Source: Candidatus Woesearchaeota archaeon
Lineage (GTDB): Archaea > Nanobdellota > Nanobdellia > Woesearchaeales > UBA10216
Direction of reading: 5' to 3'
DNA: 64,000 nt
Assembly: GCA_018303115.1 (NCBI GenBank)
Contig: JAGVYT010000001.1
Location: 10,279-74,278 of the forward strand
A program made the position numbers and the translations under genes. Shown piece after piece: positions 2,377-26,060 of the stretch. The notes under the pieces are model-generated. The model had not been told where the DNA came from and searched no databases. It saw only the letters and a list, made by a program, of their open reading frames with translations. Each line of letters starts with the position of its first letter. Position 1 is the stretch's first letter.

Positions 2377-2476
2377 GCGTAAAACCCCAGAATTTGAATT
2401 GAGCGGATAACCAGGAAAGCAGCTATAGCTACGACAATCCACAGCAGCAATAACAAGTCAAGCCCTTTACCCATTT

Positions 2477-3139: not shown

Positions 3140-3159
3140 ACTTAACACCTCACAACACC

Positions 3160-5950: not shown

Positions 5951-6545
5951 TTATGCCATCCCAGCTCCTGAAAACCTTAACGCCGTCCAAATGCCCCTGC
6001 CCTCCATAAGGGTCATACAAAATCTTCTCGACCCATTCAGGGAACAGCCTGTCACAAAACGTTTCCTCAAGGTCGTCTATGAAATGCGTGCAGCCAAGCT
6101 GCCTGATTCGCTGCAGCTTCCCTTCCCTTGTAGACTCAAAGTGAACATCCGCTCTTGAAACAGCCAACCCCCCCTCTTTAAAAAAGTTGTTTCTTTCCAT
6201 CCAATCAAGCGCAGCTTTCCTGAAGTTGGAACCGCCCCCGAAGTAATTCGAGAACTCAGTCTTATGGCTGATTATAAAAACCTTAACCCTATTATCCTTA
6301 CACAGCCTGAAAAACCGCTCAACACCGTCTATAAGCTCAGCTTCCCCCATCCTCTGCCCGTAAATAACAGCCTGCACCTCCTGCCATTTTTCATCCCCGT
6401 GAACCTGCCTGACGGCATCGCGGATATGCCTTTTGACCTTCTTAATGCCCTCGCTGACTAAACCCATCTCCAGGGCAACCTTGTGTATCAGGGCATCATA
6501 GCTCACAATAGTGTTGTCCAAGTCCACTCCAATAACATAATCCAT
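5922..6545 (-). CDS. HAD-superfamily phosphatase
   Basis: N-terminal DxD motif (MDYVIGVDLDNTIV) and later FIISHKT / FIDD motifs. Start set at first ATG (ORF caller start is TTG). Confidence 0.6.
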   Translation of the reverse strand: MDYVIGVDLDNTIVSYDALIHKVALEMGLVSEGIKKVKRHIRDAVRQVHGDEKWQEVQAVIYGQRMGEAELIDGVERFFRLCKDNRVKVFIISHKTEFSNYFGGGSNFRKAALDWMERNNFFKEGGLAVSRADVHFESTREGKLQRIRQLGCTHFIDDLEETFCDRLFPEWVEKILYDPYGGQGHLDGVKVFRSWDGINGHLFRSGR

Positions 6546-6643
6546 TGTGTTTTGGTTGAAAAGCAAATCTATATAAATATTCTGACATTCCTCTGCAAAG
6601 GGGTTTAAGCAAAAGCCGCGAATATAAAACAGGCTATAACAAA

Positions 6644-7525
6644 ATGCCTAACGAAATAGACAGGATTGTAATCTTCGGGCACACCGGATTCATAGGCAGG
6701 CATCTTGAGAGGTTCCTGAAAGAAAAACACCCTGAACTGGAAATAATAGGGGCTTCGCTTCCATCAGTTGACCTTACCAAGGACAGTGCTCCCGTAAAAG
6801 GGCTTTTTGGAATGAAAACAGCAGTCATCATGCTGTCTGCGCTTAAGAGGGAACACGGCGACAACCTGGACAATTTCTTAAAGAATGTAAAAATGGCTGT
6901 GAATGTCTGCAAGCAAATTGAAAACAATCCTGTCAAGCGATTCATTTACTTCAGCTCAGCAGCAGTTTACGGGGAGGACGTCCAAAATTTAAGCATCAAC
7001 GAGGACAGCCCGGTAACCCCGACAACATATTACGGGATAGCGAAACACAGCTGTGAAAGACTGCTTAGAAAAGCCACAGGCTCCGGAAAAGGAAGCGCTC
7101 TCACTATTTTGAGGCCGCCGATAATATACGGGCCAGGAGACAACTCAGGCTACAGCCCTTCCGGGTTTGCAAAAACAGCGATGAGAGGCGAAACCATAAA
7201 ATTGTGGGGGGACGGCACTGAAAAAAGGGAGTTTATATTCGTGGAGGATGTTGCGAGGGCAGTAGAGAAGCTTGTCTTAAACAACCACGATTGCACGTTG
7301 AACCTGGCAAGCGGCAAAAGCTACACTTTCGCTGAAATAATAGACGAGCTGTCAAAACTGACTAATTCAGAAATAAAAGTCGAATCAAGGAAGAGAACGA
7401 AAGAAAAGGCTGACCACGGATTTGAAAACACTGCGCTGCTGAAGGTGTTCCCGGAATTTTCGTTCACGCCGTTAAGCGAAGGCCTTAAGAAAACAATTGA
7501 CGCGATAAAAGGGGGAACAGAATGA
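6644..7525 (+). CDS. NAD(P)-dependent sugar epimerase/reductase (SDR family, RmlD/GDP-fucose-synthase-like)
   Basis: N-terminal GHTGFIGRHL Rossmann motif, YGIAKHSCE (YxxxK) active site. TATA-like GAATATAAAA ~22 nt upstream. Confidence 0.65.
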   Translation: MPNEIDRIVIFGHTGFIGRHLERFLKEKHPELEIIGASLPSVDLTKDSAPVKGLFGMKTAVIMLSALKREHGDNLDNFLKNVKMAVNVCKQIENNPVKRFIYFSSAAVYGEDVQNLSINEDSPVTPTTYYGIAKHSCERLLRKATGSGKGSALTILRPPIIYGPGDNSGYSPSGFAKTAMRGETIKLWGDGTEKREFIFVEDVARAVEKLVLNNHDCTLNLASGKSYTFAEIIDELSKLTNSEIKVESRKRTKEKADHGFENTALLKVFPEFSFTPLSEGLKKTIDAIKGGTE

Positions 7526-9264
7526 GGCGCCGCACCTGCCGAAGCTGCCGAAGCGATGAAGTAAGAACCATGCTGGATTTCGGGATGCAGCCCCTTTCCA
7601 ACAGGTTCCTGAAATCCCCTGAAAAAAATGAGCCAAGGCACAGGCTTGCAATCGGGTTCTGCCATGCCTGCGGCGTTTTACAGCTAACTGATACGTTCCC
7701 GGCGAATGAGCTTATACCCCCTCACAAGTGGCTTTCCTACACAGAGCCTGAAAAGCACCTTGACAAACTTGCTGATGCGCTATCAAAACTGCCGGGAATT
7801 GAAAAGGATGCTCCAATATTCGCCATAAGCTACAAAGACGACTCCCTGCTGAGGAGAATGGAGAAACTTGGATTCAAGAACGTGGCCAGGCTTAACCCAA
7901 GAGAAGACTTGGGCGCTGAAGGCGATTACGAAGGGGTTGAGCTTATCCAAAACCTGTTTAGCGCAGAGAAGGCAAGGGGGATTGCAGAAAAAAAGGGGAA
8001 ATTCGGCATAGTCATAGCAAGGCACATCCTGGAACACTCTTACGACACACTAGATTTCATGAATGGGATAAAGGAACTGCTAAAGCCGGGAGGGCACGCT
8101 GTTTTTGAAGTGCCTGACTGCACCCTTTCCATGGAAAAACTTGATTACTCAATGGTCTGGGAAGAGCACCCGTTATACTTAACCCCTGAAACCTTCAGGA
8201 ACTGCCTAGCCATGAGCGGGTTTTCAACCGACAGGCTGGAAACATACCACTACCCGCTGGAGAATTCCCTTGTTGCAATAACAAAAGCAGGCAATACGGC
8301 GTTTTCGCCAGACAAAGAAGCCATCCAAAAAGAAGAGAAAAGGGCAAAAGCGTTTGCGCAGGAATTTGAAAAAAGAAAGGCAATGCTCAAATCGTTCTTT
8401 TCCGGTTACAACGGAAAGATAGCGGTTTTCGGCGCAGGCCACAGCGCAAGCGCCATCATCAACCTTTTCGGGCTGGAAAACATTGCATGCGTTGCAGACG
8501 ACAATGAAAAAAAGCATGGGCTTCTGATGCCAGGCTCACACCTGCCGATAGTCAGTTCAGACGTCCTTGAAAAGGACATCGACCTTTGCGTGCTTAGCGT
8601 CAACCCGGAAGCTGAAGAAAAGATAATAGCCAAGAAAAACCGGTTCAGGGGAAGCTTTCTGTCATTCTCGCCGGCAAGCAGGCGCTCAATATATGCAAAC
8701 CTCGCACACCTTGGAAACCCCGCCAAGTTCAGGGAGGTCAGCAAGGAAGTATACTACACAACAGAAAGCAGTGCCAAGCTCTACAAGGAGGACATAAGCC
8801 TCTTCAAGGAAAAATCAAGGAATAACGAGAGGGGGAAAAGCAGAATATGCACCCACGAAAGCACTGAAAACAAGCTCCATGAGATGTTCATCGTATTCAG
8901 GAAAGGCGCTTACGTAAGGCCGCACAAGCACCTTGACAAGCTGGAGTCGTTCCACGTTGTTGAAGGCAGCGCTTACGTTGTAACCTTTGATGAGCAAGGC
9001 GGAATAACAAACCTGTTTGAAATAGGCGAGTACCAGTCAGGGAAGAATTTTTACTGCAGGATGGCAGGGCCAGCTTACCACACCCTCATAATAAAATCAG
9101 ACTACCTGGCATTCCACGAAGCCACAACAGGGCCTTTCAGGAAATCTGATACTGTCCATCCGGCATGGTCTCCGGAAGAAGGCGACAAAGAAGGCATCAA
9201 AAAATTCATGGATAAGTTAGAGGCTTCGGTTAAGAGGCTTTTAGAGGACAGGAAAAATGGGTAA
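7522..9264 (+). CDS. sugar C-methyltransferase (TylCIII/NovU-like) fused to a C-terminal cupin domain
   Basis: N-terminal Zn-ribbon CRSCRS...CHACG, class I MTase core, a C-methyltransferase C-terminal domain. Last ~150 aa form a cupin-like module (PHKH...FHVVEGSAYVV...YHTLII), WbuC/RmlC/FdtA-like. ATGA overlap with upstream gene. Confidence 0.6.
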   Translation: MRRRTCRSCRSDEVRTMLDFGMQPLSNRFLKSPEKNEPRHRLAIGFCHACGVLQLTDTFPANELIPPHKWLSYTEPEKHLDKLADALSKLPGIEKDAPIFAISYKDDSLLRRMEKLGFKNVARLNPREDLGAEGDYEGVELIQNLFSAEKARGIAEKKGKFGIVIARHILEHSYDTLDFMNGIKELLKPGGHAVFEVPDCTLSMEKLDYSMVWEEHPLYLTPETFRNCLAMSGFSTDRLETYHYPLENSLVAITKAGNTAFSPDKEAIQKEEKRAKAFAQEFEKRKAMLKSFFSGYNGKIAVFGAGHSASAIINLFGLENIACVADDNEKKHGLLMPGSHLPIVSSDVLEKDIDLCVLSVNPEAEEKIIAKKNRFRGSFLSFSPASRRSIYANLAHLGNPAKFREVSKEVYYTTESSAKLYKEDISLFKEKSRNNERGKSRICTHESTENKLHEMFIVFRKGAYVRPHKHLDKLESFHVVEGSAYVVTFDEQGGITNLFEIGEYQSGKNFYCRMAGPAYHTLIIKSDYLAFHEATTGPFRKSDTVHPAWSPEEGDKEGIKKFMDKLEASVKRLLEDRKNG

Positions 9265-10486
9265 ATACACCAGGCGCGGCACGTGCAGGCTCTGCAGCTC
9301 AAAAGAGCTTGAACTTGCCTTTCAGCTTGCGCCAACGCCAATAGGAGATGCATACCTTCCAGTGAAGCAAAAACTAGAAAGCTATCCGGTTGAGCTTTTT
9401 TTGTGCAGAAGCTGCGGCCTTGCGCAACTGCTTGATGTTGTTGAGCCTGAAGAAGTATACCGCCCATACATATACAGGACAGCCGACTCACTGGGGCTGG
9501 TGGAACACTTCAGAAAATACGCTGATGAAGTAATGAAAGCCGTGAATCCCAAAAAAGGCGGCTTAGTGGTTGACATAGGCGGCAATGACGGCTCATTCCT
9601 GAAGTTTTTCAGAAATCATGGCATGAAAGTCCTTGGCGTTGACCCTGCAACCAAAATAGCCCGCGAAGCAACTGAATCCGGAATAAAAACACTGCCTGCC
9701 TTCTTCACGCCAGAACTCGCAAGCGAAATAAGGAAAGAGAACGGGAATGCCTCCATCATAACCGCAAACAACACAATGGCAAACATAGACGACCTGCAAG
9801 GCATGATGGACGGGGTAAAAAAGCTTTTAGCCCCTGACGGGGTGTTTGTGTTTGAAACAGGTTATGTGCTTGACCTGCTGCAGAAAAAAATCATTGACAA
9901 CATCTACCACGAGCACATAAGCTATTTCTCAGTAAAACCCCTTGAAAACTTTTTTCGGAATAATAGCCTGGAGCTCATAGACGCAAAGCGGGTGGCGACA
10001 AAAGGAGGCTCATTGAGATGCACAGTGCAGCTTAAAGGAGGTCCAAGGAAGCGCTCACCAGCAGCAGACGAGCTGATTAAGCTTGAGGCAGAAAGCAGAA
10101 TACACAACCACGAAACGTTCAGGGCATTTGCTTCCGAGCTGGAAAACATAAAAAACGAGCTGACTAAGCTGCTAAACGGGTTAAAGGCAAAAGGCAAGCT
10201 CATTGCAGGGTATGGGGCATCAGTAGGGGTAACCACCATACTGCATAATTTCGGACTAAACAAAAACCTGATAAGCTTCCTTGTTGATGACAACCCAAAC
10301 AGACAAAACTTATATAGCCCGGGCTTAAACATCCCAGTATTGAACCCAAAAGCGTTATACGAGAAAAAGCCGGACTACGTGGTCATCCTGGCCTGGCAAT
10401 ACGCAAAACCAATATTGGACAAGAACAAGGCTTATCTTAAACATGGGCGTTTCATAAACATAATCCCGAAAGTAGAGGTGGCATAA
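9257..10486 (+). CDS. sugar C-methyltransferase paralogue (TylCIII-like), no cupin
   Basis: Same architecture as the upstream gene: Zn-ribbon CRLCSS...CRSCG, MTase core VVDIGGNDGSF, C-terminal C-MT domain. 8-nt overlap with upstream gene. Confidence 0.65.
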   Translation: MGKYTRRGTCRLCSSKELELAFQLAPTPIGDAYLPVKQKLESYPVELFLCRSCGLAQLLDVVEPEEVYRPYIYRTADSLGLVEHFRKYADEVMKAVNPKKGGLVVDIGGNDGSFLKFFRNHGMKVLGVDPATKIAREATESGIKTLPAFFTPELASEIRKENGNASIITANNTMANIDDLQGMMDGVKKLLAPDGVFVFETGYVLDLLQKKIIDNIYHEHISYFSVKPLENFFRNNSLELIDAKRVATKGGSLRCTVQLKGGPRKRSPAADELIKLEAESRIHNHETFRAFASELENIKNELTKLLNGLKAKGKLIAGYGASVGVTTILHNFGLNKNLISFLVDDNPNRQNLYSPGLNIPVLNPKALYEKKPDYVVILAWQYAKPILDKNKAYLKHGRFINIIPKVEVA

Positions 10487-10487
10487 G

Positions 10488-11573
10488 ATGGGCAACAAAA
10501 TCAGCTGGTTCAGGAATTCATTCGGCGAGGAAGAGCTGAAAAAGCTGGGCGAGTCTGTAGCCCAAGAGCACATAAGCCTTGGCCCTGTCACAGCAGAGCT
10601 TGAAGCACAGTTTGCAAAGGAACTGAACATCCCTTACGCAGTGGCTGTGCCAAGCGGCAGCGTCGCACTCCTCATCTCCCTAATTGCATGCGGAATCTCG
10701 CCTGAGGATGAGGTCATCATGCCGAACCGAAGCTGGATTGCCACGGCAAACGCCCCGATTATCCTCGGAGCAAAAGCTGTCCTCGTGGATGTGCAGGAAG
10801 ACCTGCCACTAATCGACGCATCGCAAATCAGGGAAAAAATCACCCCAAAAACCAAGGCAATAATACCTGTGCACCTGAACGGCAGAAGCTCGGACATGGA
10901 AGCCATCAACAAAATAGCAAAAGAACACAGCCTGTTTGTAATAGAAGACGCATGCCAGGCAATGTTTTCAAAAAATTCCTCCGGATTCCTGGGGACACAG
11001 TCTGACATGGGATGCTATTCCCTTGGGGTAACAAAGCTTATCTCAACAGGCCAGGGAGGGATGATTGTAACAAGGAACAAAGAGCTTTACGAAAAACTAA
11101 AACTAATCCGCAACAACGGAACACCAGACCATTTCATCCCGGAATACACCACAGTAGGACTAAACTTTAAGTTCACAGACATGCTCGCTTCAATCGGCCT
11201 TGTGCACCTGTCACAATTAAAGGAAAGACTAAAGCACGTCAATAAGGTGTATGAAAAATATGCAGAGGCGCTCAAGGAAATGCCATACCTCAAAATGATT
11301 CCAGTAAACGTAAAACAGGGAGAGGTGCCAATCTATGTTGAAGTCCTGTGCGAGAAACGCGATGAGCTAATCAGTTTCCTCGCTTCAGAAGGCATTGAAA
11401 CCAGGCCATTCCTCCCAAACCTTGAAATGGCGCCTTACATTGAAAGCGGATATTTCCCAAACTCAAAGATTTTCGAGGAACAGGGCCTGTTCCTTCCTTC
11501 CGGCCCCTCACAGCCACTTGAGAATGTTGACAAGGTGATAGAAGCGTTAAAGCAGTTCGGGAGAGAATTATGA
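10488..11573 (+). CDS. DegT/DnrJ/EryC1/StrS-family PLP-dependent sugar aminotransferase
   Basis: Fold-type I sugar aminotransferase pattern with the lysine-containing GVTKLISTGQGG motif and IIPVHLNG block. Confidence 0.8.
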   Translation: MGNKISWFRNSFGEEELKKLGESVAQEHISLGPVTAELEAQFAKELNIPYAVAVPSGSVALLISLIACGISPEDEVIMPNRSWIATANAPIILGAKAVLVDVQEDLPLIDASQIREKITPKTKAIIPVHLNGRSSDMEAINKIAKEHSLFVIEDACQAMFSKNSSGFLGTQSDMGCYSLGVTKLISTGQGGMIVTRNKELYEKLKLIRNNGTPDHFIPEYTTVGLNFKFTDMLASIGLVHLSQLKERLKHVNKVYEKYAEALKEMPYLKMIPVNVKQGEVPIYVEVLCEKRDELISFLASEGIETRPFLPNLEMAPYIESGYFPNSKIFEEQGLFLPSGPSQPLENVDKVIEALKQFGREL

Positions 11574-12520
11574 AATTCATAGTCTTGGGAACAACAGAAT
11601 TCACGCTAAGATGCGCCCAGGCCCTTCTGGACAGCGGGGCTGAATTGCGCCTTCTTGTCTCAATGCCTGAACGCTCACGCCCAATCAATTCAGCAGACGT
11701 TTCGGGTTTTGCGCAATCCCATAAAATCCTCTACCATGAAACGGAAGACATAAACTCGCCCGAATCCTTATCTGCAATAAAGAAACAACAGGCAGATTAC
11801 ATCCTGGCATCCTGGCCAGCCATAATAAAAAGGGAAGTTCTAGGGGCAGCAAGGATGTGCATAGGCTCGCACCCTACAGACCTGCCGCACAACAGGGGCA
11901 GGCACCCCTTGCACTGGCTGATAACGCTAGGATTCAAGGAGTCAAAACTAAGCTTTTTCAGAATGAATGAAGGCATAGACTCGGGAAACATACTGCTTAA
12001 GATTCCATTCAGGATTGGCAAAAAGGACTCCATCATGGAGGTTGTTGCAGAACTGAACGATGCAGCATACAAGGGAACAAAGGGGCTTTACAGGCTGCTA
12101 AAGCGGTCAGTGCCCGAAGGAACAGAACAGGAGCATAAAGAAGCCAATTACTGGAGGAAAAGAAGCGTGCATGACGTGATTCTGGACTTAAGAATGCCAT
12201 CAGACACGATAATCAGGACTGTAAGGTCGTTTTCAACGCCATACCCATGCGCCAAGCTTATCTTTGAAGACAGCATCATTGCAGTATCAAAGGCAGAAGT
12301 TGCGCAAACACCGCTTTCTAAAGAGGAAATAATGAGGACAGAACCTGGAAAAATCATCAGCGCTGAAGGAAAAAGAATGCTGGTTAAAGCAGAAGACAAA
12401 ATCATGCTTTTAGAAACTGACGGGCTTCCACAGAAGATATTAGAGGCAAAATACATCCACCCCCCGTCAAAATACATTGCCGGATGGTCGCAGAATCAGC
12501 TCAAAAGACTAGAAAACTAG
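11570..12520 (+). CDS. sugar N-formyltransferase (formyl_trans_N family, QdtF/FdtF/ArnA-N-like)
   Basis: SHPTDLPHNRGRHPLHW matches the formyltransferase HxSLLPxxRG-type catalytic motif. 4-nt overlap with the aminotransferase gene. Confidence 0.7.
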   Translation: MKFIVLGTTEFTLRCAQALLDSGAELRLLVSMPERSRPINSADVSGFAQSHKILYHETEDINSPESLSAIKKQQADYILASWPAIIKREVLGAARMCIGSHPTDLPHNRGRHPLHWLITLGFKESKLSFFRMNEGIDSGNILLKIPFRIGKKDSIMEVVAELNDAAYKGTKGLYRLLKRSVPEGTEQEHKEANYWRKRSVHDVILDLRMPSDTIIRTVRSFSTPYPCAKLIFEDSIIAVSKAEVAQTPLSKEEIMRTEPGKIISAEGKRMLVKAEDKIMLLETDGLPQKILEAKYIHPPSKYIAGWSQNQLKRLEN

Positions 12521-12584
12521 AAGCACTAAGCCAGTATCTCCGAAAGCAGCTGTTCGCTGGCTGCGCCCAAGCTGCTTGCTTTGT

Positions 12585-12626
12585 TTAGCTTCTCTCCACT
12601 TAACTTGCGTAGGGGAGAGAAGCTAA
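12585..12626 (+). repeat. hairpin family member a (13-bp perfect stem TTAGCTTCTCTCC/GGAGAGAAGCTAA, loop ACTTAACTTGCGTAGG)
   Basis: Read directly. Lies between convergent gene ends. An additional 8-bp hairpin AAGCAGCT/AGCTGCTT at 12544-12577. Confidence 0.7.
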
Positions 12627-12737
12627 GTTAGGAGAACCTCAGCCAGCAAATGGGCACTTGAAAAGTTTACTTAACACAAGGGGAAAGAAGAAAAAGCAGA
12701 AAGAACAACAGTCATCACATAACTTCACTTTACCAAA

Positions 12738-13766
12738 TCAGCACATCTTGATTACGCATCTAATAACCCTGCCTTCGCGAAGTTCCTGTATTGCGGCATT
12801 AATCTCACCCAGACTGCATACCTTTGTCACCATCTTTTCAAGGCTAAACCTGCCAGACTCCTGCAGCCTCAGCAGCCTTGGTATGTCATACGCTGGATTG
12901 CTGTCCCCGCCGTGAGAACCGGTTATCTTCTTTTTGAAGTGCAACTTAAATGAATCTATGCACATCTTTTCCCCCGCTTTTGGAACGCCAACAAGAATTG
13001 TGCGCCCCTCCCTGCCGCTGACTTCGTAAGCAAGCTCCCTGATTTCCTTAATCCCAGTCGTATCAACGGCAACGTCGGCATCAGAGGAAAGATACTCGCT
13101 GATTTTCTGCCTTGCGTCTTCCCTTGAAGAATTAATGACATGCGTAGCGCCAAACCGTCTGGCATTTTCCAACTTAAAATCATTAATGTCAACCGCAATT
13201 ACCGGGTATGCTGAAGCCAAAGAGGAGGCAAGAATGATTGATGTCCCGGTGCCGCCTGCCCCAAAAACAACCAAGGACTCCCCGCTTTTCACGCCAGCAT
13301 CGTTCTGAACCACCCCAAAACCAGTAGTAACTGCACAGCCGTAAAGGGAAGCCAGCTTCATGTCAAAACTTTTTGGAATAGGGGTTATGCGATTTTCCGA
13401 AACGACAGCAGACTCATTAAAAGTAGTAACCCAGCCTGCATTAACCGTCCTGCCGCCAAGCTTATACACAGGGGTGGAAGACTCGACCCCCTTTCCTTTC
13501 CTCCAGTGCAAGACCACATGGTCGCCTTCCTTTACATTGGTGACGCCAGGGCCAACGCCTTCCACAACCCCGCTTCCCTCGTGCCCAAGAAGATGCGGCA
13601 GGAACCTATCAGGGCCCTTAACGCCTTCAATCTCATTAATCTGCGAGCCGCACAGCCCGCTGTAGTGCACCTTAACAAGAACCTGGCCGTAATGAAGAAC
13701 CTCAGGAATTTGAACTTCATCAACCACCAGAGGGGATTTCTGCTTCACTAAAATAGCCGCTTTCAT
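12738..13766 (-). CDS. zinc-dependent alcohol dehydrogenase (MDR family)
   Basis: GHEGSGVVEGVG and CGSQ zinc-ligand motifs, GAGGTG nucleotide-binding motif. Confidence 0.8.
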   Translation of the reverse strand: MKAAILVKQKSPLVVDEVQIPEVLHYGQVLVKVHYSGLCGSQINEIEGVKGPDRFLPHLLGHEGSGVVEGVGPGVTNVKEGDHVVLHWRKGKGVESSTPVYKLGGRTVNAGWVTTFNESAVVSENRITPIPKSFDMKLASLYGCAVTTGFGVVQNDAGVKSGESLVVFGAGGTGTSIILASSLASAYPVIAVDINDFKLENARRFGATHVINSSREDARQKISEYLSSDADVAVDTTGIKEIRELAYEVSGREGRTILVGVPKAGEKMCIDSFKLHFKKKITGSHGGDSNPAYDIPRLLRLQESGRFSLEKMVTKVCSLGEINAAIQELREGRVIRCVIKMC

Positions 13767-13879
13767 ATTTTACTCCAAACTCCTTAACATTTGGCAAAGC
13801 AGGCAGTTTAAAAAATTTTTGCAACATCAGTAAGCGACAAAAATAAGTCGCAGCATTGCCTTCACACGCCAAGGAAAAA

Positions 13880-13887
13880 TTTAAATA
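13880..13887 (+). promoter_or_regulatory. archaeal TATA box (TTTAAATA) 23 nt upstream of ATG 13911; leaderless-type promoter
   Basis: Same octamer and spacing recur at 20275-20282 (ATG 20305), 29812-29819 (ATG 29843) and 51957-51964 (ATG 51989). Variants occur at 17688-17695, 22685-22692 and 55695-55702. Confidence 0.55.
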
Positions 13888-13910
13888 GACTCTTCTTCCG
13901 CCAAAGAAAA

Positions 13911-14900
13911 ATGGGCAAGATTGTTGTAATCGGGAGCAATTCCTTTGCAGGCTCACATTTTATAGACTACCTTTTGTCAAACACGGACAGCTCCATCATA
14001 GGCATAAGCAGAAGGGATGAGAAAAAAGACGTATTTCTCCCGTATAAGAAAAACAGGAACCTTGAGCGGTTCAGGTTCCAAAGGTTCGACCTTAACAAGA
14101 ACATGGCTGAGCTTCTGAAATTCCTGGACGATGAAAAGCCGGAGGTAATTGTCAACTATGCCGCGCAAAGCGAAGTGGCGCCAAGTTGGGAAAACCCGCT
14201 TAACTGGTATGACACAAATGTTTCGGCTGTTGTAAAGCTGACTAACCATTTGAAAGGCCAGAAATACCTGAAGAATTACGTGCATGTCTCATCACCTGAA
14301 ATATACGGAACATGCTACATGGAAGTTTACGAGGACCACTCATACAACCCCAGCACCCCTTACGCCGCTTCAAAGGCAGCCGGGGACATGTTCATACAGC
14401 TGCTTGCCAAAAACTTCAATTTCCCTGCTATTATTGTCAGGCCGACAAACTATTACGGTCCATGCCAGCAGCTTTTCAAGATAATACCAAAGTCAATAAT
14501 ATACCTCAAGAAAGGCGAAAAGATTCCTCTTCACGGGGGAGGCAGGGCAGTAAAATCATTCATTCACATAAGAGACGTGTGCGACGGCATGCTTAAAATA
14601 GTGGAAAAGGGGAAAGCAGGAGAGATTTACCACCTCTCCCAATCTTCAGGCTACTCTGTCAGGAAGATAGTAGAAAAAATCTGCAGTAAAATGGGGAAAA
14701 AATTCAATGAAGCAACTGACATCGTTGAAGAGCGGCTTGGCCAGGATGCATCCTACATAATAAGTTCCTACAAAGCAAGAAAGCTGAACTGGGAGCCCAA
14801 AATAGGAATAGACGAGGGCCTTGCAGAATGCATCAAATGGGTGGAAGACAACTGGAGCGAAATAAAAACTGAACCCCTCAAATACATACACGAGGCGTGA
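13911..14900 (+). CDS. NDP-hexose 4,6-dehydratase (RmlB-like SDR)
   Basis: GSNSFAGSHF Rossmann motif, YAASKAAGD (YxxxK). TTTAAATA box at 13880-13887, 23 nt upstream of the ATG. Confidence 0.7.
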   Translation: MGKIVVIGSNSFAGSHFIDYLLSNTDSSIIGISRRDEKKDVFLPYKKNRNLERFRFQRFDLNKNMAELLKFLDDEKPEVIVNYAAQSEVAPSWENPLNWYDTNVSAVVKLTNHLKGQKYLKNYVHVSSPEIYGTCYMEVYEDHSYNPSTPYAASKAAGDMFIQLLAKNFNFPAIIVRPTNYYGPCQQLFKIIPKSIIYLKKGEKIPLHGGGRAVKSFIHIRDVCDGMLKIVEKGKAGEIYHLSQSSGYSVRKIVEKICSKMGKKFNEATDIVEERLGQDASYIISSYKARKLNWEPKIGIDEGLAECIKWVEDNWSEIKTEPLKYIHEA

Positions 14901-16114
14901 TAAAAATACCTGCAAAGAAGGAAATAACACAGCACTGGTATTTCGAGAAAAAGGGAATCATTTCACAACACCGCAACCTAAAATCGCAAAGCGACCTTGA
15001 TTCCTACGAGCAGGAAAGAAGAGACCTGTTTACAGATAAGCTTGCGCTGCCGCCAAGCGCCTTTACCAACTCGCAATTGCTTGAGTTCGGGCCTTCTGCA
15101 GGGGAAAACGCCATTGTGTTTGCAATGTGGGGGGCTTCATGCACGCTTGTTGAGCCAAACCTCAAAGCACACCCCTGCATCAAAAAATATTTCGAGCAGT
15201 TCAAACTTGCACAAAAGCTTGTCGAAGTAGACGGCTCAACACTGGAAAGCTACTCCAAACGCCAAATACCTGACAAGAAATTTGACTTCATAGTTGCCGA
15301 AGGATTCATCTACCTAGTGAAGCCAGACCCCATGTGGATTGGCTTCTTTTCCAGAATCATAAAGAACAACGGGTTTGTCATCCTGAACTACTGCGAGACA
15401 TTCGGCAACTTTCAGGAGCTGTTCCTGAAAGCAATTCACAGCAGAATGTGCAAACTCACAGGGATGGGCTCTGTGGAAGCTGCGGGGAAATGGTTTGGAG
15501 CCAAGTGGAATTCCATACCGCACACCACAACAATGGAGTCCTGGGTGGCTGACGTTTTAGACAACCCAACTGTCCGGCTAGCGCGATTTTACGAACTGAA
15601 AGAGCTGTGCACAAACCTCTGCAACTCTGGATTTTACCTATACTCTTCCTGGCCACCGTATAAGAACAGCCTTGAGGTGTATTGGGCCAAGAAAATGCCA
15701 AAACCAAAAGAGCAGCTTGAATCACAGAACGAATTTATCGAAAGAAGCAGGCTTAGCCACATGTTCGGCAGGAAGCATTTCCTTCTAAAGACTGGCCCAG
15801 AAATGGAACCCTCCATTAAAGAGCTTCTTACCCTCACAGACAGCCTGATAGACGAATTTGACAGGGACAAGGCAGAGAAATGCATCGAGCACCTTGGCAG
15901 CATAGAGAGGCTCATAGGCTCGGACGCAGTAATTTCAGAGCCCAAAGACGTTAAAGAAACGCTTAACGCGATTAAAAGCATAAAGCACATCCTTAACCTG
16001 CTTATTGCAGGAAACGCAGACGACATAGCAGCATTCTGCAGCAGCGACAAGGCATTCATCAAAAGCTGGGGAATGCCCACGCATTACGCTGTCTTCAGAA
16101 AAGGAAGCGAATAG
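14897..16114 (+). CDS. hypothetical protein with N-terminal class I methyltransferase-like domain
   Basis: LEFGPSAGENAI (GxG), FDFIVAEGF and NNGFVIL resemble MTase motifs I-III. C-terminal ~200 aa helical and unassigned. ATGA overlap upstream. Confidence 0.35.
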   Translation: MIKIPAKKEITQHWYFEKKGIISQHRNLKSQSDLDSYEQERRDLFTDKLALPPSAFTNSQLLEFGPSAGENAIVFAMWGASCTLVEPNLKAHPCIKKYFEQFKLAQKLVEVDGSTLESYSKRQIPDKKFDFIVAEGFIYLVKPDPMWIGFFSRIIKNNGFVILNYCETFGNFQELFLKAIHSRMCKLTGMGSVEAAGKWFGAKWNSIPHTTTMESWVADVLDNPTVRLARFYELKELCTNLCNSGFYLYSSWPPYKNSLEVYWAKKMPKPKEQLESQNEFIERSRLSHMFGRKHFLLKTGPEMEPSIKELLTLTDSLIDEFDRDKAEKCIEHLGSIERLIGSDAVISEPKDVKETLNAIKSIKHILNLLIAGNADDIAAFCSSDKAFIKSWGMPTHYAVFRKGSE

Positions 16115-16805
16115 ACTTCAAGCGCACCCTGAAGAACAGCCTAAAAACCGTGCTTACGATTCCAAAAACATTCCTGAGGCGCAGGGCAGTAGTTGAGCTG
16201 GTTTCCTGCAGCGCCATAATTGGAACTTCCTTTACAGAATGCCCCGCCTTCACGAGCCGTATAAGAATCTCAGGATAAACCCCGAAGCTGCTGGTTGTGA
16301 TGCTCACTTTCCCAACAAGGCTTTTTTCATACATCTGCATGCCAAAATAATACTTCAGGCGAAGTCCGAACAAAAGGTTCAGGAAAGCGGAAACAACAGC
16401 GGAAATGACCCGGCGGTGAAGAAGCCTGACCTTCTTGTTTCCGCTGTAGGAAATAACAACATCCGCCTGACCAATCTTGCCCATGTAATTCTCAAGAGAA
16501 TCCGGGGTCAGGCTGTCAGGGCCTGGAAGCAGCATCACGTATTCCTTGGAAGCGTGCCTAATGCCAAGAGCGTAGCTGTAACCAACATTCATGTTCCTCC
16601 TGTTATGAAACACCCTTATCCTGGAATTCCTTTTTGCAAGCCTGTCAACAATTTCCCCTGTCCTGTCACTGCTCCCGTCCTCAAAAATAAGCAGCTCGTA
16701 ATCTGAAAACAGCTTAGCGGCAATTCTACTGACACCCCTTACAGAAGATGCAATAGTCTGCTCATCGTTATACGCCGGTATTATGATGCTGACTGACTTT
16801 TTCAT
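16095..16805 (-). CDS. GT2 glycosyltransferase (ArnC/DPM1-like polyprenol-phosphate sugar transferase candidate)
   Basis: SIIIPAYNDEQTI and the FEDGSSD (DxD-type) motif. Start at internal MKKSVSIII. Confidence 0.7.
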   Translation of the reverse strand: MKKSVSIIIPAYNDEQTIASSVRGVSRIAAKLFSDYELLIFEDGSSDRTGEIVDRLAKRNSRIRVFHNRRNMNVGYSYALGIRHASKEYVMLLPGPDSLTPDSLENYMGKIGQADVVISYSGNKKVRLLHRRVISAVVSAFLNLLFGLRLKYYFGMQMYEKSLVGKVSITTSSFGVYPEILIRLVKAGHSVKEVPIMALQETSSTTALRLRNVFGIVSTVFRLFFRVRLKSIRFLF

Positions 16806-17182
16806 GCCCACACCGCGGAGTAGCCCATCATTGCCACCCCAAACACTATGGCGGCTATCCCAAGCCACTTATACTTATTCATGCGCTCCCCCAAAAACCT
16901 CACCGACAGCAGCGAAACCCAAACAAAAGTCAAGGCATTTGTGGGAAAGACAACCGCCAGGTCCGCATTTTTTAACGCCCACAAGTAAAAGGGCATAGGC
17001 AGCAGGTAAAAAAAGACGCCAAGCATAAGCTTATAGTTACGCAGCTGCTCAGCAACGCTAAAAGAAAACTTCACCGAGCCAAGCTTAAAAAACAGGGCAC
17101 CAAAAGCCACTGAAACCGTCAAAACCGCCACAATGCCAACTACAACGATTGTCTCAACCATGTTCAGCACCATAACCAACAA
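16802..17182 (-). CDS. small EamA/SMR-like 4-TM protein (ArnE/ArnF-like flippase subunit candidate)
   Basis: 126 aa, four hydrophobic helices, 4-nt overlap with the GT2 gene. Confidence 0.55.
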   Translation of the reverse strand: MLVMVLNMVETIVVVGIVAVLTVSVAFGALFFKLGSVKFSFSVAEQLRNYKLMLGVFFYLLPMPFYLWALKNADLAVVFPTNALTFVWVSLLSVRFLGERMNKYKWLGIAAIVFGVAMMGYSAVWA

Positions 17183-17513
17183 GGCTTATCCCCGCAGCAA
17201 TAAAAAATATGCCAAGCCAGTTAATCAAAAGCAGCACTTCATTCAAAACAAACAGGGCTACCAAAGCCACCCATACGTAACTTAATGCAAAAAAAGGGTA
17301 TGCGACAGACAATTCCGCCTTTTTAAGAGCAAAAAGCACAAGCATAGCCCCAAGGGCGTAAAAAAACAGTCCAAGAAATATGTTATAGTTGGTTATTATG
17401 GCCTGCACATTCAGCTCAAGAGCGGCTGCCCCTGTCTTATAGAAGTATTGGGCTGCTACAGAAAATACGGTAAAAATAACAATAAGCAAAATTGCTGCAG
17501 GACTGGTTTTCAT
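17154..17513 (-). CDS. small EamA/SMR-like 4-TM protein, second subunit
   Basis: ~120 aa from MKTSPAAILLIV, four TM helices, overlaps the partner gene. The longer ORF-caller start includes a non-TM extension that overlaps hairpin element e. Confidence 0.5.
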   Translation of the reverse strand: MKTSPAAILLIVIFTVFSVAAQYFYKTGAAALELNVQAIITNYNIFLGLFFYALGAMLVLFALKKAELSVAYPFFALSYVWVALVALFVLNEVLLLINWLGIFFIAAGISLVGYGAEHG

Positions 17514-17578
17514 CAAAAAGCGGAAACGCGACATGTTTTTAAAGATTTGCGTTGACTGGTTCCAAATCTGAACATATT

Positions 17579-17622
17579 CCACTTTCCTCACCCTAATCCA
17601 GTTAAGGGGGAGGAAAGTGAGG
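17579..17622 (+). repeat. hairpin family member e (stem CCACTTTCCTCACCC/GGGGGAGGAAAGTGAGG with one mismatch, loop TAATCCAGTTAA)
   Basis: Read directly, in divergent region between EamA gene (-) and pfkB kinase gene (+). Confidence 0.65.
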
Positions 17623-17717
17623 AAGCAGCAGGGCAAAGCAAATTGCATCGCAAGCTAACTTTTCAATAGCGCCAGAGAAGGATTAAATTTAAAAAGTAAC
17701 AGGGAATCGTTCTAAAC

Positions 17718-18758
17718 ATGGAAGAATCGTATATTGAGGGAATTAAAAGAAAGTATTCTATTGAAAAGCTGAAGGAAGCGCTGTCACAATTTAAAAGAAT
17801 AAAAATCCTCGTGATAGGCGACACCATAATTGATGAATACCATTTTACACGCCCGAAAGGCAGGGCAACCAAAGACCCGATTCTTTCAGTTGACTATGTC
17901 AACCATGAGGTTTACGGAGGGGGCATACTGGCTGTTGCAAATCATGTAAGCAATTTTGCAGATGAAGTAACATGCATTACGGCAATTGGAGACAGGAACG
18001 ACCGGAAAGACTTCATCACCGGCGCCCTCAACAAAAACGTAGACTTGAAACTTCTCGTAAAAAAGGACTCGCCAACTACAATAAAAAAGAGGTATTTGGA
18101 CAACATAAGGAATGAAAAACTGTTCAAGGTAGAGTTCATTAACGAAGCCCCAATTGATGAAGAAACTGAAAAAAAGCTTATTGGATTCCTAGAGCAGGAG
18201 CTGCCTAAAAACGACTTGGTCCTCCTTGGAGACTTCGGGCACGGCTTAATAACTGAAAAGGTCATAAAGCTACTGGAAGAAAAGTCAAAATACCTGGCAG
18301 TAAATGCGCAATGCAACAGCGCAAACCTCGGCTTTAATTTTGTAACCAAGTATAGCAAACCAAAATACATAACCATGGACATTACCGAACTGCAGTATGC
18401 TGTTTCGGACCGCTTCAGCACAGTGGATGTCCTGATGAAAAAGCTCAGGGACAAAACAGGCTTCAGCAATTTCCTGGTAACAATGGGAAAGGAAGGCGCA
18501 GGATACTTCAACAACAACAACATTAGATTCAGCCCTGCCTTTGTCACAAGGCCAAAGGACACAGTAGGGGCAGGGGACGCCGTCTTCAGCGTCACTTCCC
18601 TTTTTTCCTGCCTTGGAATGAAAGAGCTAATCCCGTTCATAGCAAACTGCGCAGGCGGCATTGCAGTGTCGTACCTCGGTAACAAGGAGAGCATAAATAA
18701 AGAGAAACTTCTGGAGTTCATCAGCCAGGCATACAATGGCGAGATTAAAGCAGTGTAG
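17718..18758 (+). CDS. pfkB-family sugar kinase, HldE kinase-domain-like (heptose 7-phosphate kinase candidate)
   Basis: ILVIGDTIIDEY N-terminal motif and GAGDAV near the C-terminus as in RfaE/HldE domain I. TTTAAAAA box 22 nt upstream. Confidence 0.65.
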   Translation: MEESYIEGIKRKYSIEKLKEALSQFKRIKILVIGDTIIDEYHFTRPKGRATKDPILSVDYVNHEVYGGGILAVANHVSNFADEVTCITAIGDRNDRKDFITGALNKNVDLKLLVKKDSPTTIKKRYLDNIRNEKLFKVEFINEAPIDEETEKKLIGFLEQELPKNDLVLLGDFGHGLITEKVIKLLEEKSKYLAVNAQCNSANLGFNFVTKYSKPKYITMDITELQYAVSDRFSTVDVLMKKLRDKTGFSNFLVTMGKEGAGYFNNNNIRFSPAFVTRPKDTVGAGDAVFSVTSLFSCLGMKELIPFIANCAGGIAVSYLGNKESINKEKLLEFISQAYNGEIKAV

Positions 18759-19815
18759 AAAACTCTTTCTTCATAGCCTCATAGCTTTTGCTGTTAACGT
18801 CAATAAATTCGGCATTGATGTTTTCAGCCAGTTCAGCATCATTTCGGCTGTCGCCAATAACAACAGCCATATCAAAATCACCGGGAGTCATGTTAAGCTC
18901 CTTCAGAGCCTGAAGAACCATTCCAGGGCTAGGCTTTCTCATGGCCTTATCCTTTACAAAGTCAGGATTAAACTGAACCCCATTTGCCGAAGCCGCATAC
19001 ACTTTATCAACGTCAGGGCAGAACTGCCAGTTATCTATAACAACACCCTTCTCCCTTAAAAATTCCGCAATGCAGCCGTTAACATCAGCCACAGTCTTAA
19101 GCGCAAAATAATTGCGCGCTACGCCCTGCTGATTTGAGATAACAATCTTGACAGTGTCATACTTTGTCTGAACATAAGAAATTAGGTCTATAACAGGCTT
19201 CTGCAGCTTAACCTGCCCCATCCAGTTCTCATCCCTGCCAAGAAAATCAACGTGCTCCACAAGAGTGCCGTCCCTGTCTATTACAAGAAGGATTTTTTCG
19301 CGCTTAACGTTATCCTTTATGTGGTTTATTATTTCAGTTGATGAAAATTTCTGGTCTGCCGTGTATTTCACCTCTCCGCCAGCCGCCTCAATAGCCCTGC
19401 GCTCTGCAGTTATGCCGGGGGTTGTCTTATTGACAAAATCAGGCCCCTTTATGTAAAATGATGGCTTAAGCCTCTCCACGACGTGAACAGCCCGCTCAAA
19501 ATCGCTGACGACCACGAAGTCAACAAAATTAAGGGCTGCTACGGAGTAGGCGCGCAAAAGCTCTGAAAAAATTGGCCTGCCGCTGCCCTTCCTTGCCGTT
19601 ACAAACCTGTCAGAAGTTATTGAAACAAACAAATAATCGCACAACTTCGCTGCAGACTCAAGATGCTTAATGTGCCCGGGATGGAGCAGGTCAAAACCCC
19701 CATGGCAAAGCCCAACAGTTTTATTCGCCTGTTTGAACTCTGAAATTTTCTTAACAGCAGCGCCAAAACCGATAATTTTGTCCGAGCTGAAATCGTTATC
19801 TTCCGCCTTAAACAT
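18745..19815 (-). CDS. bifunctional cytidylyl/adenylyltransferase-like domain (HldE domain II-like) fused to a GmhB-like HAD phosphatase
   Basis: N-terminal GLCHGGFDLLHPGHIKHL (nucleotidyltransferase HxGH-type motif). C-terminal LVIDRDGTLV ... IGDSRNDAELA HAD motifs as in heptose-1,7-bisphosphate phosphatase. Start 19815 preferred over 19875 because a TTTTATAT box lies ~30 nt upstream on the coding strand. Confidence 0.6.
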   Translation of the reverse strand: MFKAEDNDFSSDKIIGFGAAVKKISEFKQANKTVGLCHGGFDLLHPGHIKHLESAAKLCDYLFVSITSDRFVTARKGSGRPIFSELLRAYSVAALNFVDFVVVSDFERAVHVVERLKPSFYIKGPDFVNKTTPGITAERRAIEAAGGEVKYTADQKFSSTEIINHIKDNVKREKILLVIDRDGTLVEHVDFLGRDENWMGQVKLQKPVIDLISYVQTKYDTVKIVISNQQGVARNYFALKTVADVNGCIAEFLREKGVVIDNWQFCPDVDKVYAASANGVQFNPDFVKDKAMRKPSPGMVLQALKELNMTPGDFDMAVVIGDSRNDAELAENINAEFIDVNSKSYEAMKKEFSTLL

Positions 19816-20159
19816 GTTAACCAATGCCAGAGGCAACCCGGAAGAGAATATAAAAGTTTTGCTATAGCGGAACATTCACAGTGACCATTACCAGTCAATT
19901 TCCTGCTTAACTTGGGACTCCCTGCTAAGCCAGACAAGGGTCTTCAGGGGTTGTCCTGAATCCTGTTCGTGTAGCTACTGCATACCCTCAAACCTGTTCT
20001 CCAAAACTTCTATGACCACTCTATGACTCACATACGGCAGAGCAGGAGGGAGGGAAGTAGAAAGGAAGCGATAAACATGCGAGAAAGCCCTTTTAGGACA
20101 GCGCCGGGTCTTCAGGCATTGTTGAAAGTCTTGCCTGCTTGCTTATTCGCCCTTTCTTT

Positions 20160-26043: not shown

Positions 26044-26060
26044 CGCCCGAATTCTGAACT

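Follow-up and report, generated by a model that had tools for sequence, protein, structure and literature searches.

In the Arn pathway, N-formylation is known to pull an unfavourable transamination forward. A catalytic triad of asparagine, histidine and aspartate has been established for GART, for the methionyl-tRNA formyltransferase Fmt, for ArnA and for the sugar N-formyltransferases, with the asparagine at N102 of ArnA, N108 of Fmt and N106 of GART. Equally, the C-methyltransferases MtmC, TcaB9 and KijD1, of the mycarose, tetronitrose and kijanose pathways, are known to methylate the C3 position of nucleoside diphosphate (NDP)-4-keto sugars via an enolate. Delivery to the surface has been described for the Arn pathway, where the polyprenyl-phosphate glycosyltransferase ArnC takes only the formylated UDP-4-amino-4-deoxyarabinose (UDP-Ara4FN; unformylated, UDP-Ara4N), followed by deformylation, flipping by ArnE/F and transfer by ArnT (PMC12690121). 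Here, a stretch of 64,000 nucleotides of contig JAGVYT010000001.1 from Candidatus Woesearchaeota archaeon (the window, always at its full length) has been analysed by open reading frame (ORF) listing and by Pfam and NCBIfam domain scans. It contains a glycan cassette in which a formyltransferase-like protein (FTL) is encoded directly behind two C-methyltransferases and a DegT-type aminotransferase. The system is a new variation on two known kinds of chemistry, ArnA-like formylation of an amine and TylC3-type C-methylation, and we give somewhat better than even chances to a model in which it provides the cell surface with a 4-formamido sugar that is C-methylated, by an ArnA-like route.

The core of the cassette consists of five genes on the forward strand (6644-12520; Table 1), which encode in this order the short-chain dehydrogenase/reductase (SDR) SDR293, a C-methyltransferase fused to a cupin, the C-methyltransferase CMT409, the DegT aminotransferase and FTL. 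With junctions of, in order, a 4-nt overlap, an 8-nt overlap, a 1-nt gap and a 4-nt overlap, the last of which is an ATGA shared by the DegT stop and the FTL start, these genes form a single translationally coupled operon. An earlier note on this DNA, made from the sequence alone, had described the coupling of DegT to a Formyl_trans_N-type gene, and ORFs, domains and the ATGA overlap were all found as described, the domains at E-values that chance would not explain; equally, the peptide SHPTDLPHNRGRHPLHW was recovered at residues 100-116 of FTL, the domain searches confirmed the C-methyltransferase-cupin fusion and the second C-methyltransferase, and the assumed archaeal host agrees with the best named relatives of the GyrA in the window, which come almost only from Candidatus Woesearchaeota and Nanoarchaeota.

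A cross-genome scan with one genome per species recovered 21 loci with FTL relatives, for which the gene counts obtained by tblastn and clustering are lower bounds, many contigs being short. The archaeal hosts include Woesearchaeota, other uncultured archaea and a Methanoregula metagenome-assembled genome (MAG), and the bacterial hosts include Leptospira interrogans, L. borgpetersenii, Omnitrophota, Dehalococcoidia, Nitrospirales, Sulfuricurvum, Fibrobacterota, Riflebacteria, Lachnospiraceae, Synechococcaceae and Pelagibacteraceae. DegT was detected by tblastn in all 21 loci, in 19 of which it immediately precedes FTL in the same orientation; the loci further have a CMT409-type methyltransferase in 16 cases, the 220-aa methyltransferase MT31 in 15, the N-terminal subunit of a split transketolase (TK_N) in 12, a HldE-like kinase and an APH-like kinase in six each, and a zinc-dependent alcohol dehydrogenase (Zn-ADH) and SDR293 in five each. 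The cupin stands alone in nine loci and is fused to the methyltransferase in two more; in most related loci it is a gene of its own between the two C-methyltransferases. Zn-ADH orthologues of 50-68% identity occur in L001, L002, L003, L005 and L006, and the gene is found additionally in L024 and L025. The complete block of SDR, C-methyltransferase, DUF6016 cupin, C-methyltransferase, DegT and FTL is also present on the metagenome contigs L025, L026 and L027, preceded in L026 by genes for a GT9, a transketolase, MT31 and radical SAM proteins, and L024 shows the same block without the SDR and with the first C-methyltransferase as a fragment beside a transposase. The sister Woesearchaeota locus L001 is nearly syntenic, and the GyrA on its contig of 113,229 bp is 75% identical to that of the window. 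FTL itself is 57% identical to its counterpart in Woesearchaeota and 54% to that in Omnitrophota; archaeal and bacterial proteins are about equally distant, which fits a horizontal spread of a cassette whose core operon appears, from these comparisons, to be invariant and common to archaea and bacteria.

In bacteria, the DegT-FTL-C-methyltransferase core is flanked by proteins that NCBIfam has collected as a 'sporadic carbohydrate cluster' from Leptospira and other bacteria (TIGR04323, 171.6 bits; TIGR04324, 365.5; the TIGR04372 glycosyltransferase, 211.2), the marker loci being L016 and L017 from Leptospira and, for the tested TIGR04372 member, L006 from an uncultured bacterium. None of the three markers gave a tblastn match in the window, which instead has archaeal-style glycosyltransferase family 2 (GT2), flippase-like and GT-C genes; as the markers adjoin the same core in bacteria, the window can be seen as the archaeal version of a noticed, uncharacterised cassette. 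Many versions of the cassette, among L004, L011-L015, L018, L026 and L027, have in addition genes for radical SAM, SPASM and B12-binding radical SAM proteins, NUDIX hydrolases and an MsbA-like ABC exporter, and in L024 KdsA-, KdsB-, KdsC- and SIS-like genes directly follow a TIGR04372-like gene. No radical SAM cassette gene was found in the window. The cassette is a variable, heavily methylating toolkit, and the window is devoid of all these additional genes. Nothing describing it was found in the literature on Leptospira rfb, O-antigen clusters and sugar N-formyltransferases.

FTL carries the formyltransferase domain (PF00551, 44.8 bits, cut-off 26.1) and the C-terminal Formyl_trans_C subdomain (PF02911, 34.3 bits), and stays under every NCBIfam cut-off, with 85.6 bits against the fmt model TIGR00460 (cut-off 201.5), 96.5 against PRK06988 (316) and 86.4 against NF005998 (777), a model of bifunctional ArnA, the decarboxylase domain of which FTL does not have. 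The best sequence matches among solved proteins are bacterial Fmt (3tqq, E 2.6e-18) and then ArnA. A family profile built from 20 members and scored against solved proteins gave 110 bits for Fmt, 97 for the ArnA transformylase, 80 for WbkC and 48 for 10-formyl-tetrahydrofolate dehydrogenase, followed by FdtF (41 and 33.9), QdtF (39.8), WlaRD (28.9) and VioF (27). With the AlphaFold (AF2) model of FTL (pLDDT 90.1), Foldseek ranked the ArnA transformylase domain first (2bln, 1yrw; E 4e-23; TMq 0.78, TMt 0.82; about 310 columns) and Fmt after it, whereas FdtF and QdtF did not appear before rank 38. Furthermore, HMMER alignments show the motifs RGRxPLxW and RxRTPxD to be common to FTL and ArnA and not to Fmt, and a gap of four residues in FTL opposite part of an N-terminal loop of Fmt, presumably the loop for tRNA recognition.

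Databases name homologues of FTL methionyl-tRNA formyltransferase, and the earlier note had held that a grouping with Fmt orthologues and a C-terminal tRNA-binding domain would indicate such a housekeeping role. The Formyl_trans_C domain is present, and Fmt provides both the top PDB sequence match and the highest profile score; this likeness is, however, superficial, because the C-terminal subdomain is likewise part of ArnA, the organism is an archaeon and the gene sits in a glycan cassette. To our knowledge, archaea neither formylate the initiator Met-tRNA nor use formylmethionine. As FTL also misses the fmt cut-off by more than 100 bits and lies in a conserved glycan cassette of an archaeon, it is not a housekeeping Fmt. 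The missing catalytic asparagine, the ArnA-type motifs, the gap opposite the N-terminal loop and the strict coupling with DegT, seen within the glycan loci of 19 of the 21 genomes, equally speak against the housekeeping role, which retains next to no probability and can be regarded as effectively refuted already.

With ArnA, on the other hand, FTL shares the closest fold, the two-subdomain architecture, the histidine and aspartate of the triad and both motifs, and it follows a DegT/ArnB-type gene. Some neighbours bear a likeness, weak in the case of ArnC, to ArnC, to ArnE/F and to the ArnT fold family, in agreement with a formylation of the amine that precedes a hand-over of the sugar to a polyprenyl-phosphate carrier. 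It differs in an identity of about 21%, in a glycine in place of Asn102 and in the lack of a fused decarboxylase, and its surroundings differ in that no ArnD was found and in the presence of two C-methyltransferases and a cupin ahead of it, so that the sugar is not Ara4N; in the archaeal host, the acceptor cannot be lipid A. The characterised sugar N-formyltransferases WbkC (acting on GDP-perosamine), QdtF/FdtF, WlaRD, VioF and WbtJ belong to the same superfamily and are equally paired with DegT enzymes, with WbkC, an enzyme of a 4-amino sugar, as the nearest at 80 bits; yet all possess the intact Asn-His-Asp triad, and QdtF/FdtF and WlaRD, at 29-41 bits, have other C-terminal domains.

In the alignment of FTL with ArnA, H101 and D137 correspond to H104 and D140, Thr103 stands where a serine follows the histidine, and G99 takes the place of N102. 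An alignment artefact was considered as an origin of this exchange and rejected, because the region around Gly99 aligns without gaps to five solved proteins, namely four Fmt proteins and ArnA. The earlier note had described a motif of the HxSLLPxxRG type, and a related motif is present; however, its Ser-Leu positions differ (HPTDLP), and the catalytic asparagine two residues before the histidine is a glycine (IGSH versus NxH). Throughout the family, there is hardly any variation in the signature I-G-[ST]-H-P-T-x-L-P-x-N-R-G-R-H-P; the glycine is found in 119 of 120 close homologues, and N108, R111, H112 and W116, invariant residues specific to the family, surround the active-site loop. A profile search over 1.84 billion representatives retrieved 494 proteins at E<=1e-30; the motif is present in 133 of 148 further top-ranked representatives, with glycine in 132, alanine in one and asparagine in none. 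These representatives include a sister group of about 295 residues. By its sequence, FTL is part of a separate clade defined by this glycine, and neither a solved structure nor a characterised member exists within that clade, which comprises about 494 representative clusters at E<=1e-30. One member of the sister group (L028:940-1842; IG[YF]HP..LP.NRGRHP[IL]IW) adjoins genes for a PIG-L deacetylase and a HisF-like protein on a Tara Oceans contig, a neighbourhood that hints at an activity of the wider clade on amino sugars as well.

The glycine may bear on the formyl donor. The Gly clade might not be a folate-dependent formyltransferase but use another source of acyl or formyl groups, such as formyl phosphate, an acyl thioester or a pterin other than folate, or have a non-catalytic or binding role, with the amine then modified otherwise or left as it is. 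Such a departure, unlikely in our judgement though deserving of attention, would agree with a glycine that is kept in all but one of 120 homologues and all but one of 133 representatives with the motif, with a clade of this size having no solved structure and with the invariant residues around the active-site loop. The family occurs in both a DPANN archaeon and a Methanoregula MAG, organisms that may be without folates (N10-formyl-tetrahydrofolate). On the other hand, His101, Thr103 (for Ser), Asp137 and the whole fold including the core of the folate site are retained, and Asn106 of GART is reportedly replaceable while Asp144 is essential. The majority of hosts are bacteria with folates, and the strict pairing with an aminotransferase agrees with N-acylation. 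A precedent can be seen in HypX, where an altered triad is still proposed to pass the formyl group from N10-formyl-tetrahydrofolate (PMC6802093). A wider proposal, which we rate as lower still, is that the Gly clade represents a distinct class of enzymes for the N-acylation of sugar amines, with an altered mechanism or with a donor that is not N10-formyl-tetrahydrofolate, and that it acts alongside the split transketolase, the pair of kinase and phosphatase and both C-methyltransferases to build an undescribed branched, possibly higher-carbon acylamido sugar common to Woesearchaeota surfaces and Leptospira O-antigens; if true, this would account for the Gly clade in DPANN archaea and a methanogen.

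The position of the amine has been approached through the enzymes that precede FTL. CMT409 matches characterised C-methyltransferases over its full length, with 297.6 bits for MtmC (4rv9; E 1.2e-87, residues 8-404), 237 for TcaB9 and 219 for the sugar 3-C-methyltransferase 5t64 (KijD1), and all three domains of its architecture (PF08421, PF13489 and PF08484) follow their layout of Zn-binding, Rossmann and C-terminal domains; this likeness implies an NDP-4-keto sugar as substrate. The described enzymes serve actinomycete antibiotic pathways with dTDP-2,6-dideoxy or 3-amino sugars, whereas the window provides a surface-glycan context and a second, divergent paralogue fused to the cupin, which reaches 100.9 bits against MtmC. 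SDR293 is GalE-like in its motifs SSAAVYG and YGIAK, does not have the Asp-Glu dehydration pair and has sugar-nucleotide epimerases and GDP-fucose synthase as nearest solved proteins; a gene of its type is found in the same position in L004, L005, L013, L025, L026 and L027 (in L014 as a tblastn match only), and it is a candidate maker of the NDP-4-keto intermediate. DegT aligns with solved aminotransferases of differing specificity (7b0m, 178 bits; perosamine synthetase, 168; DesV, 153; ArnB, 131; QdtB, 128). Neither a 2,3-dehydratase nor an FdtA-type 3,4-ketoisomerase was found among the window ORFs scanned, and because CMT409 moreover resembles 3-C-methyltransferases of NDP-4-keto sugars, amination would most likely take place at C4.

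The cupin belongs to the WbuC family (TIGR04366, 114.5 bits, cut-off 42; DUF6016 in precomputed Pfam) and retains His/His/Glu/His residues of metal-binding type. WbuC genes occur in clusters of the N-acetyl-L-fucosamine (L-FucNAc) type. A structure model made with database homologues (pLDDT 96.5) has generic metallocupins and the cupin of CapF as top Foldseek matches. The latter, a C3-epimerase of UDP-4-hexulose in UDP-L-FucNAc synthesis, is the sole sugar-nucleotide enzyme in the top structural matches (TMq 0.49-0.51), although the structural likeness is weak and not accompanied by sequence similarity. The top 50 Foldseek matches contain no FdtA, QdtA or RmlC, an FdtA Pfam match was not obtained and phmmer against the PDB gave nothing at E<=10. 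The earlier note had seen in this cupin, along with the RmlB-like gene, the chemistry missing from its pathway; the cupin is there, but it is of the WbuC and not the FdtA/QdtA type.

That pathway was a dTDP-glucose route after the Qdt/Fdt logic, in which RmlB, a cupin 3,4-ketoisomerase, amination at C3 and FTL in the role of QdtF/FdtF would yield a C-methylated 3-formamido-3,6-dideoxyhexose. An SDR, a cupin, a DegT protein and a formyltransferase fold do lie within 8 kb, QdtB is among the relatives of DegT (128 bits), and a WbuC-type cupin might have isomerase activity. Yet FTL is ArnA/Fmt-like, with only 40 bits for QdtF, 34-41 for FdtF and 29 for WlaRD against 97-110 for ArnA and Fmt; the cupin matches neither FdtA nor any solved cupin by sequence, and FdtA, QdtA and RmlC are not among its leading structural matches; and a 3-C-methyltransferase homologue that needs a 4-keto group is at odds with a 3-keto intermediate. 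The assignment was therefore abandoned as very improbable, while the C-methylated N-formyl amino sugar in an archaeon, which the earlier note had deduced along with it, stands as a reasonable inference from the DegT-FTL coupling and the C-methyltransferases.

The picture is less decided for the two further enzymes of that route. The RmlB-like protein, called a 4,6-dehydratase in the earlier note, is an extended SDR with dTDP-glucose 4,6-dehydratase as its best family and with 169.5 bits against RmlB of B. anthracis, and the YAASK motif is present; its family score is, however, far below the cut-off (Table 1), and it reads SSPEIYG where RmlB has STDEVYG, with a proline at the aspartate of the Asp-Glu dehydration pair, and the same SPE in the L001 orthologue, the only one above 40% identity. 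The gene heads its own pair with a methyltransferase (4-nt overlap), the orthologue of which is equally confined to L001, and it is cut off from FTL by the convergent Zn-ADH and a stable hairpin. The protein may be either a 4,6-dehydratase or a C4 oxidoreductase. The hairpin arises from nested inverted repeats between FTL and Zn-ADH, with 16-nt arms at 12585-12600/12611-12626 and 11-nt arms at 12553-12563/12640-12650; the RNA fold of 12553-12650 (-48.6 kcal/mol, z = -2.86) is likely a bidirectional terminator-type element. Equally, the two genes put forward as RmlA-type nucleotidyltransferases turned out to be generic NTP_transferases under every RmlA cut-off (58-67 bits against 320 for rmlA_long), the first of them in an operon of UDP-glucose dehydrogenase and UXS. 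The N-terminal ~45 residues of the second weakly match the NikR ribbon-helix-helix (TIGR02793, E 0.0011), and the ORF may be a regulator-enzyme fusion or have a mis-called start.

From the domain identities, the operon coupling, the synteny, the fold and the motif substitution, a pathway to the C4-formamido sugar can be proposed, with the order of steps, the position of amination, the formyl donor, the scaffold and the lipid-carrier route as its predicted elements. An NDP-sugar would be oxidised or dehydrated to its 4-keto form, a task for SDR293 or perhaps, in this genome, for the RmlB-like SDR; the metallocupin would epimerise or enolise beside the keto group, with the CapF cupin as a model; CMT409 would methylate C3 and the second C-methyltransferase add another C-methyl group; DegT would transaminate C4; and FTL would N-formylate the new amine as the ArnA transformylase does on UDP-Ara4N. 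Attachment of the sugar to dolichyl phosphate, flipping and transfer to an acceptor at the surface would fall to the GT2, the ArnE/F-like protein and the GT-C enzymes, and O- or N-methylation to MT31 and MT405. N-formylated sugars are not new to archaea, 5-N-formyl-legionaminic acid having reportedly been found by Kandiba et al. in 2012 in a Halorubrum-derived N-glycan. The expected product, a 4-formamido-3-C-methyl sugar, would be akin to N-formylperosamine or to N-formylkansosamine, the core of which is a 4-amino-4,6-dideoxy-2-O-methyl-3-C-methyl-mannose of mycobacterial glycolipids. N-acyl kansosamine has been mentioned (PMC4403928). Compared by sugar structure and not by genes, kansosamine has the 3-C-methyl, 4-amino, N-acyl or N-formyl and O-methyl groups of the predicted chemistry, but the window has two C-methyltransferases and a possible heptose scaffold, and the organisms are unrelated.

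Table 1. Genes and other features of the window by position (values are E-values unless given as bits)
Feature	Position	Strand	Match or motif
GT-C fold membrane glycosyltransferase, PMT_2 (ArnT fold family)	541-2442	-	PF13231 2.6e-7
Divergent accessory operon	2477-6566	-	Pfam and NCBIfam
Class I methyltransferase MT31	2477-3163	-	Pfam/NCBIfam
Split transketolase, TK_C	3160-4080	-	Pfam/NCBIfam
Split transketolase, TK_N	4080-4892	-	Pfam/NCBIfam
APH-fold small-molecule kinase	4889-5950	-	Pfam/NCBIfam
HAD-like phosphatase	5922-6566	-	DLDNT (DxDxT) motif; weak Pfam 0.13
SDR293, extended SDR of epimerase/oxidoreductase type	6644-7525	+	PF01370 6.6e-37
Divergent TylC3-type C-methyltransferase (residues ~1-380) fused to WbuC/DUF6016 metallocupin (residues ~420-551)	7522-9264	+	PF08421 3.1e-16, PF08484 3.3e-13, PF13489 2.6e-11, TIGR04366
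CMT409, NDP-4-keto-sugar 3-C-methyltransferase homologue	9257-10486	+	PF08484 1.8e-45, PF13489 4e-18, PF08421 3.9e-14
DegT/DnrJ/EryC1-family pyridoxal phosphate-dependent sugar aminotransferase	10488-11573	+	PF01041 8e-84
FTL, formyltransferase fold with C-terminal OB-like subdomain	11570-12520	+	PF00551 1.5e-11, PF02911 2.7e-8
Zn-dependent medium-chain alcohol dehydrogenase (Zn-ADH), convergent with FTL	12738-13766	-	PF00107 3.3e-19, PF08240 2.7e-17
RmlB-like extended SDR, own transcription unit	13911-14900	+	TIGR01181 210.1 bits (cut-off 365.1)
Class I S-adenosylmethionine (SAM) methyltransferase, C-terminal half uncharacterised	14897-16114	+	PF13489 1.9e-10; no NCBIfam match
GT2 glycosyltransferase, tentatively of polyprenyl-phosphate (ArnC/AglJ/DPM-like) type	16095-16868	-	PF00535 1e-20
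Small EamA-type membrane protein, ArnE/ArnF-like	17154-17648	-	NF011625 (ArnE) 4.6e-11, NF002816 (ArnF) 2.7e-8, PF00892 6.4e-5
pfkB sugar kinase, HldE heptose-7-phosphate kinase domain-like	17718-18758	+	TIGR02198 (rfaE_dom_I) 130.9 bits, 5e-38 (cut-off 345)
Cytidylyl/adenylyltransferase-like (HldE domain II-like) and HAD-IIIA (GmhB-like) fusion	18745-19875	-	TIGR02199 108.2 bits (cut-off 181.5), TIGR01656 87.6 bits (cut-off 84.15), PF01467 6.8e-13
790-residue protein	20305-22677		weak thrombospondin-type-3-like repeat match
Second PMT_2 GT-C glycosyltransferase	22715-24454	+	PF13231 3.6e-13, PF02366 3.8e-7
PIN_2 toxin	26916-27314	-	
MazE-like antitoxin	29235-29519	-	
ArnC-like GT2	29768-30772	+	180.7 bits, 3e-53, below cut-off
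Methyltransferase	30784-31392	+	
GtrA-like membrane protein	31377-31793	+	
UXS/ArnA-decarboxylase-like SDR	31783-32709	-	ASTSEVYG
NTP_transferase	32706-33440	-	
UDP-glucose dehydrogenase	33437-34735	-	
NTP_transferase	34943-35740		
GyrA, 831-codon ORF	48988-51483		
Pyrimidine cluster	55729-63568		

Genes in the vicinity of the core resemble the delivery part of the Arn pathway to a varying degree. The GT2 next to the RmlB-like pair, which has a syntenic, 73% identical orthologue in L001, gave weak NCBIfam matches to ArnC (NF007986, 1.3e-10), AglJ (1.3e-8) and dolichyl-phosphate hexose transferase (1.8e-8); the neighbouring EamA-type protein is present as two tandem copies in L001, and the GT-C at 541-2442 is a candidate final transferase. 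The gene at 20305-22677, flanked by the second GT-C and by the genes that resemble heptose activation, encodes a 790-residue protein that may be a surface protein or a target of glycosylation.

Further along the window, a second glycan module contains on the forward strand an ArnC-like GT2, a methyltransferase and a GtrA-like membrane protein and on the reverse strand a UXS/ArnA-decarboxylase-like SDR, an NTP_transferase and a UDP-glucose dehydrogenase, which suggests an independent route from UDP-glucose (UDP-Glc) to UDP-glucuronic acid (UDP-GlcA), UDP-pentose and dolichyl-phosphate (Dol-P)-pentose. Alternatively, a true Arn-type pentose route could be envisaged, in which the UDP-glucose dehydrogenase and the UXS-like SDR supply a UDP-4-keto-pentose to the cassette for C-methylation, DegT and FTL, with the ArnC-like GT2 of the second module to follow. 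The window would then provide homologues of Ugd, the ArnA dehydrogenase or UXS (with ASTSEVYG), ArnB, the ArnA formyltransferase, ArnC (at the score in Table 1) and ArnE/F together with the ArnT fold family. However, the dehydrogenase operon is about 19 kb off, past a low-GC island and with its own GtrA-like and GT2 partners, an ArnD was not found, and in related loci it is not the UDP-glucose dehydrogenase and UXS genes that accompany the cassette but those for the transketolase, MT31 and HldE-like proteins; this makes the pentose route improbable. The island of low guanine-cytosine (GC) content (~24500-30000; 0.33-0.41 against about 0.47 elsewhere), with a PIN_2 toxin, a MazE-like antitoxin and ORFs without family match, probably reflects an insertion of acquired DNA that separates the two glycan modules.

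As to the scaffold of the C-methylated 4-formamido sugar, homologues or fusions of the HldE-like kinase lie beside the cassette in L001, L002, L011, L013, L015 and L021, and the adenylyltransferase fusion of the window scores 53-59 bits against GmhB models. Related loci also encode HldE-like fusions, GT9 proteins of the heptosyltransferase family and a GmhA-like SIS protein, the latter judged by reading the sequence. With a HldE-like kinase, a fusion of adenylyltransferase and GmhB and a split transketolase in the window, and GmhA-like and GT9 genes in related loci, an ADP-heptose-type precursor is plausible as a serious scaffold candidate, for which the transketolase could be the source of sedoheptulose 7-phosphate. 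The transketolase might also add a C2 branch or a glycolyl unit, after the manner of QncN/QncL-type systems. The accessory operon that includes the transketolase is kept with the cassette across domains. Its APH-like kinase gave only a marginal match to choline kinase (E 0.003) in a profile search against the PDB; L001 and L016 have kinase and HAD domain joined in one protein, and L025 has a fusion of the kinase with a methyltransferase.

Several observations weigh against the model of an Arn-like, C4-formylating pathway. The canonical asparagine is a glycine across the FTL family, and formyl transfer by FTL is a prediction from homology; no folate gene is present in the 64-kb window of this DPANN host, and one related locus derives from the Methanoregula MAG. 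The similarity of DegT to its relatives cannot tell C3 from C4 enzymes. For the downstream GT2, generic models (PgaC, TuaG) outscore ArnC, and the ArnC, ArnE and ArnF matches of the neighbours are below the family cut-offs and thus indicate resemblance, not orthology. No ArnD-type (polysaccharide-deacetylase-type) match was obtained in the scans, which covered all but a few short or unmatched ORFs of the window. On the side of the scaffold, there is no GmhA in the window and the HldE-like scores are below cut-off; furthermore, the scheme does not explain what the transketolase, the kinase-HAD pair, MT31 and Zn-ADH contribute.

The GyrA of the window is without intein, while its relatives P0123, P0133 and P0178 contain inteins, and intein-bearing Woesearchaeota GyrA proteins (PF14890, some with PF14528) span 1100-1340 residues. 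A pyrimidine cluster of carA, carB, dihydroorotate dehydrogenase and aspartate carbamoyltransferase indicates that de novo synthesis is kept in this DPANN genome. No tRNA genes were found in the window.

Hundreds of Gly-clade proteins are at present labelled methionyl-tRNA formyltransferase, among them archaeal ones, in organisms where this function does not exist. Equally, the clade probes how far the Asn-His-Asp rule reaches and, if the donor differs, would represent a new sugar-tailoring reaction. The O-antigen chemistry behind Leptospira serovars is poorly defined. In Leptospira interrogans and L. borgpetersenii, the cassette lies beside 'sporadic carbohydrate cluster' genes, presumably as part of the rfb O-antigen loci, and the defined enzyme set offers a route to the sugar. 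For DPANN archaea, the cassette suggests a complex surface glycan that was gained by horizontal transfer and is delivered by a lipid carrier in the manner of the Arn pathway.

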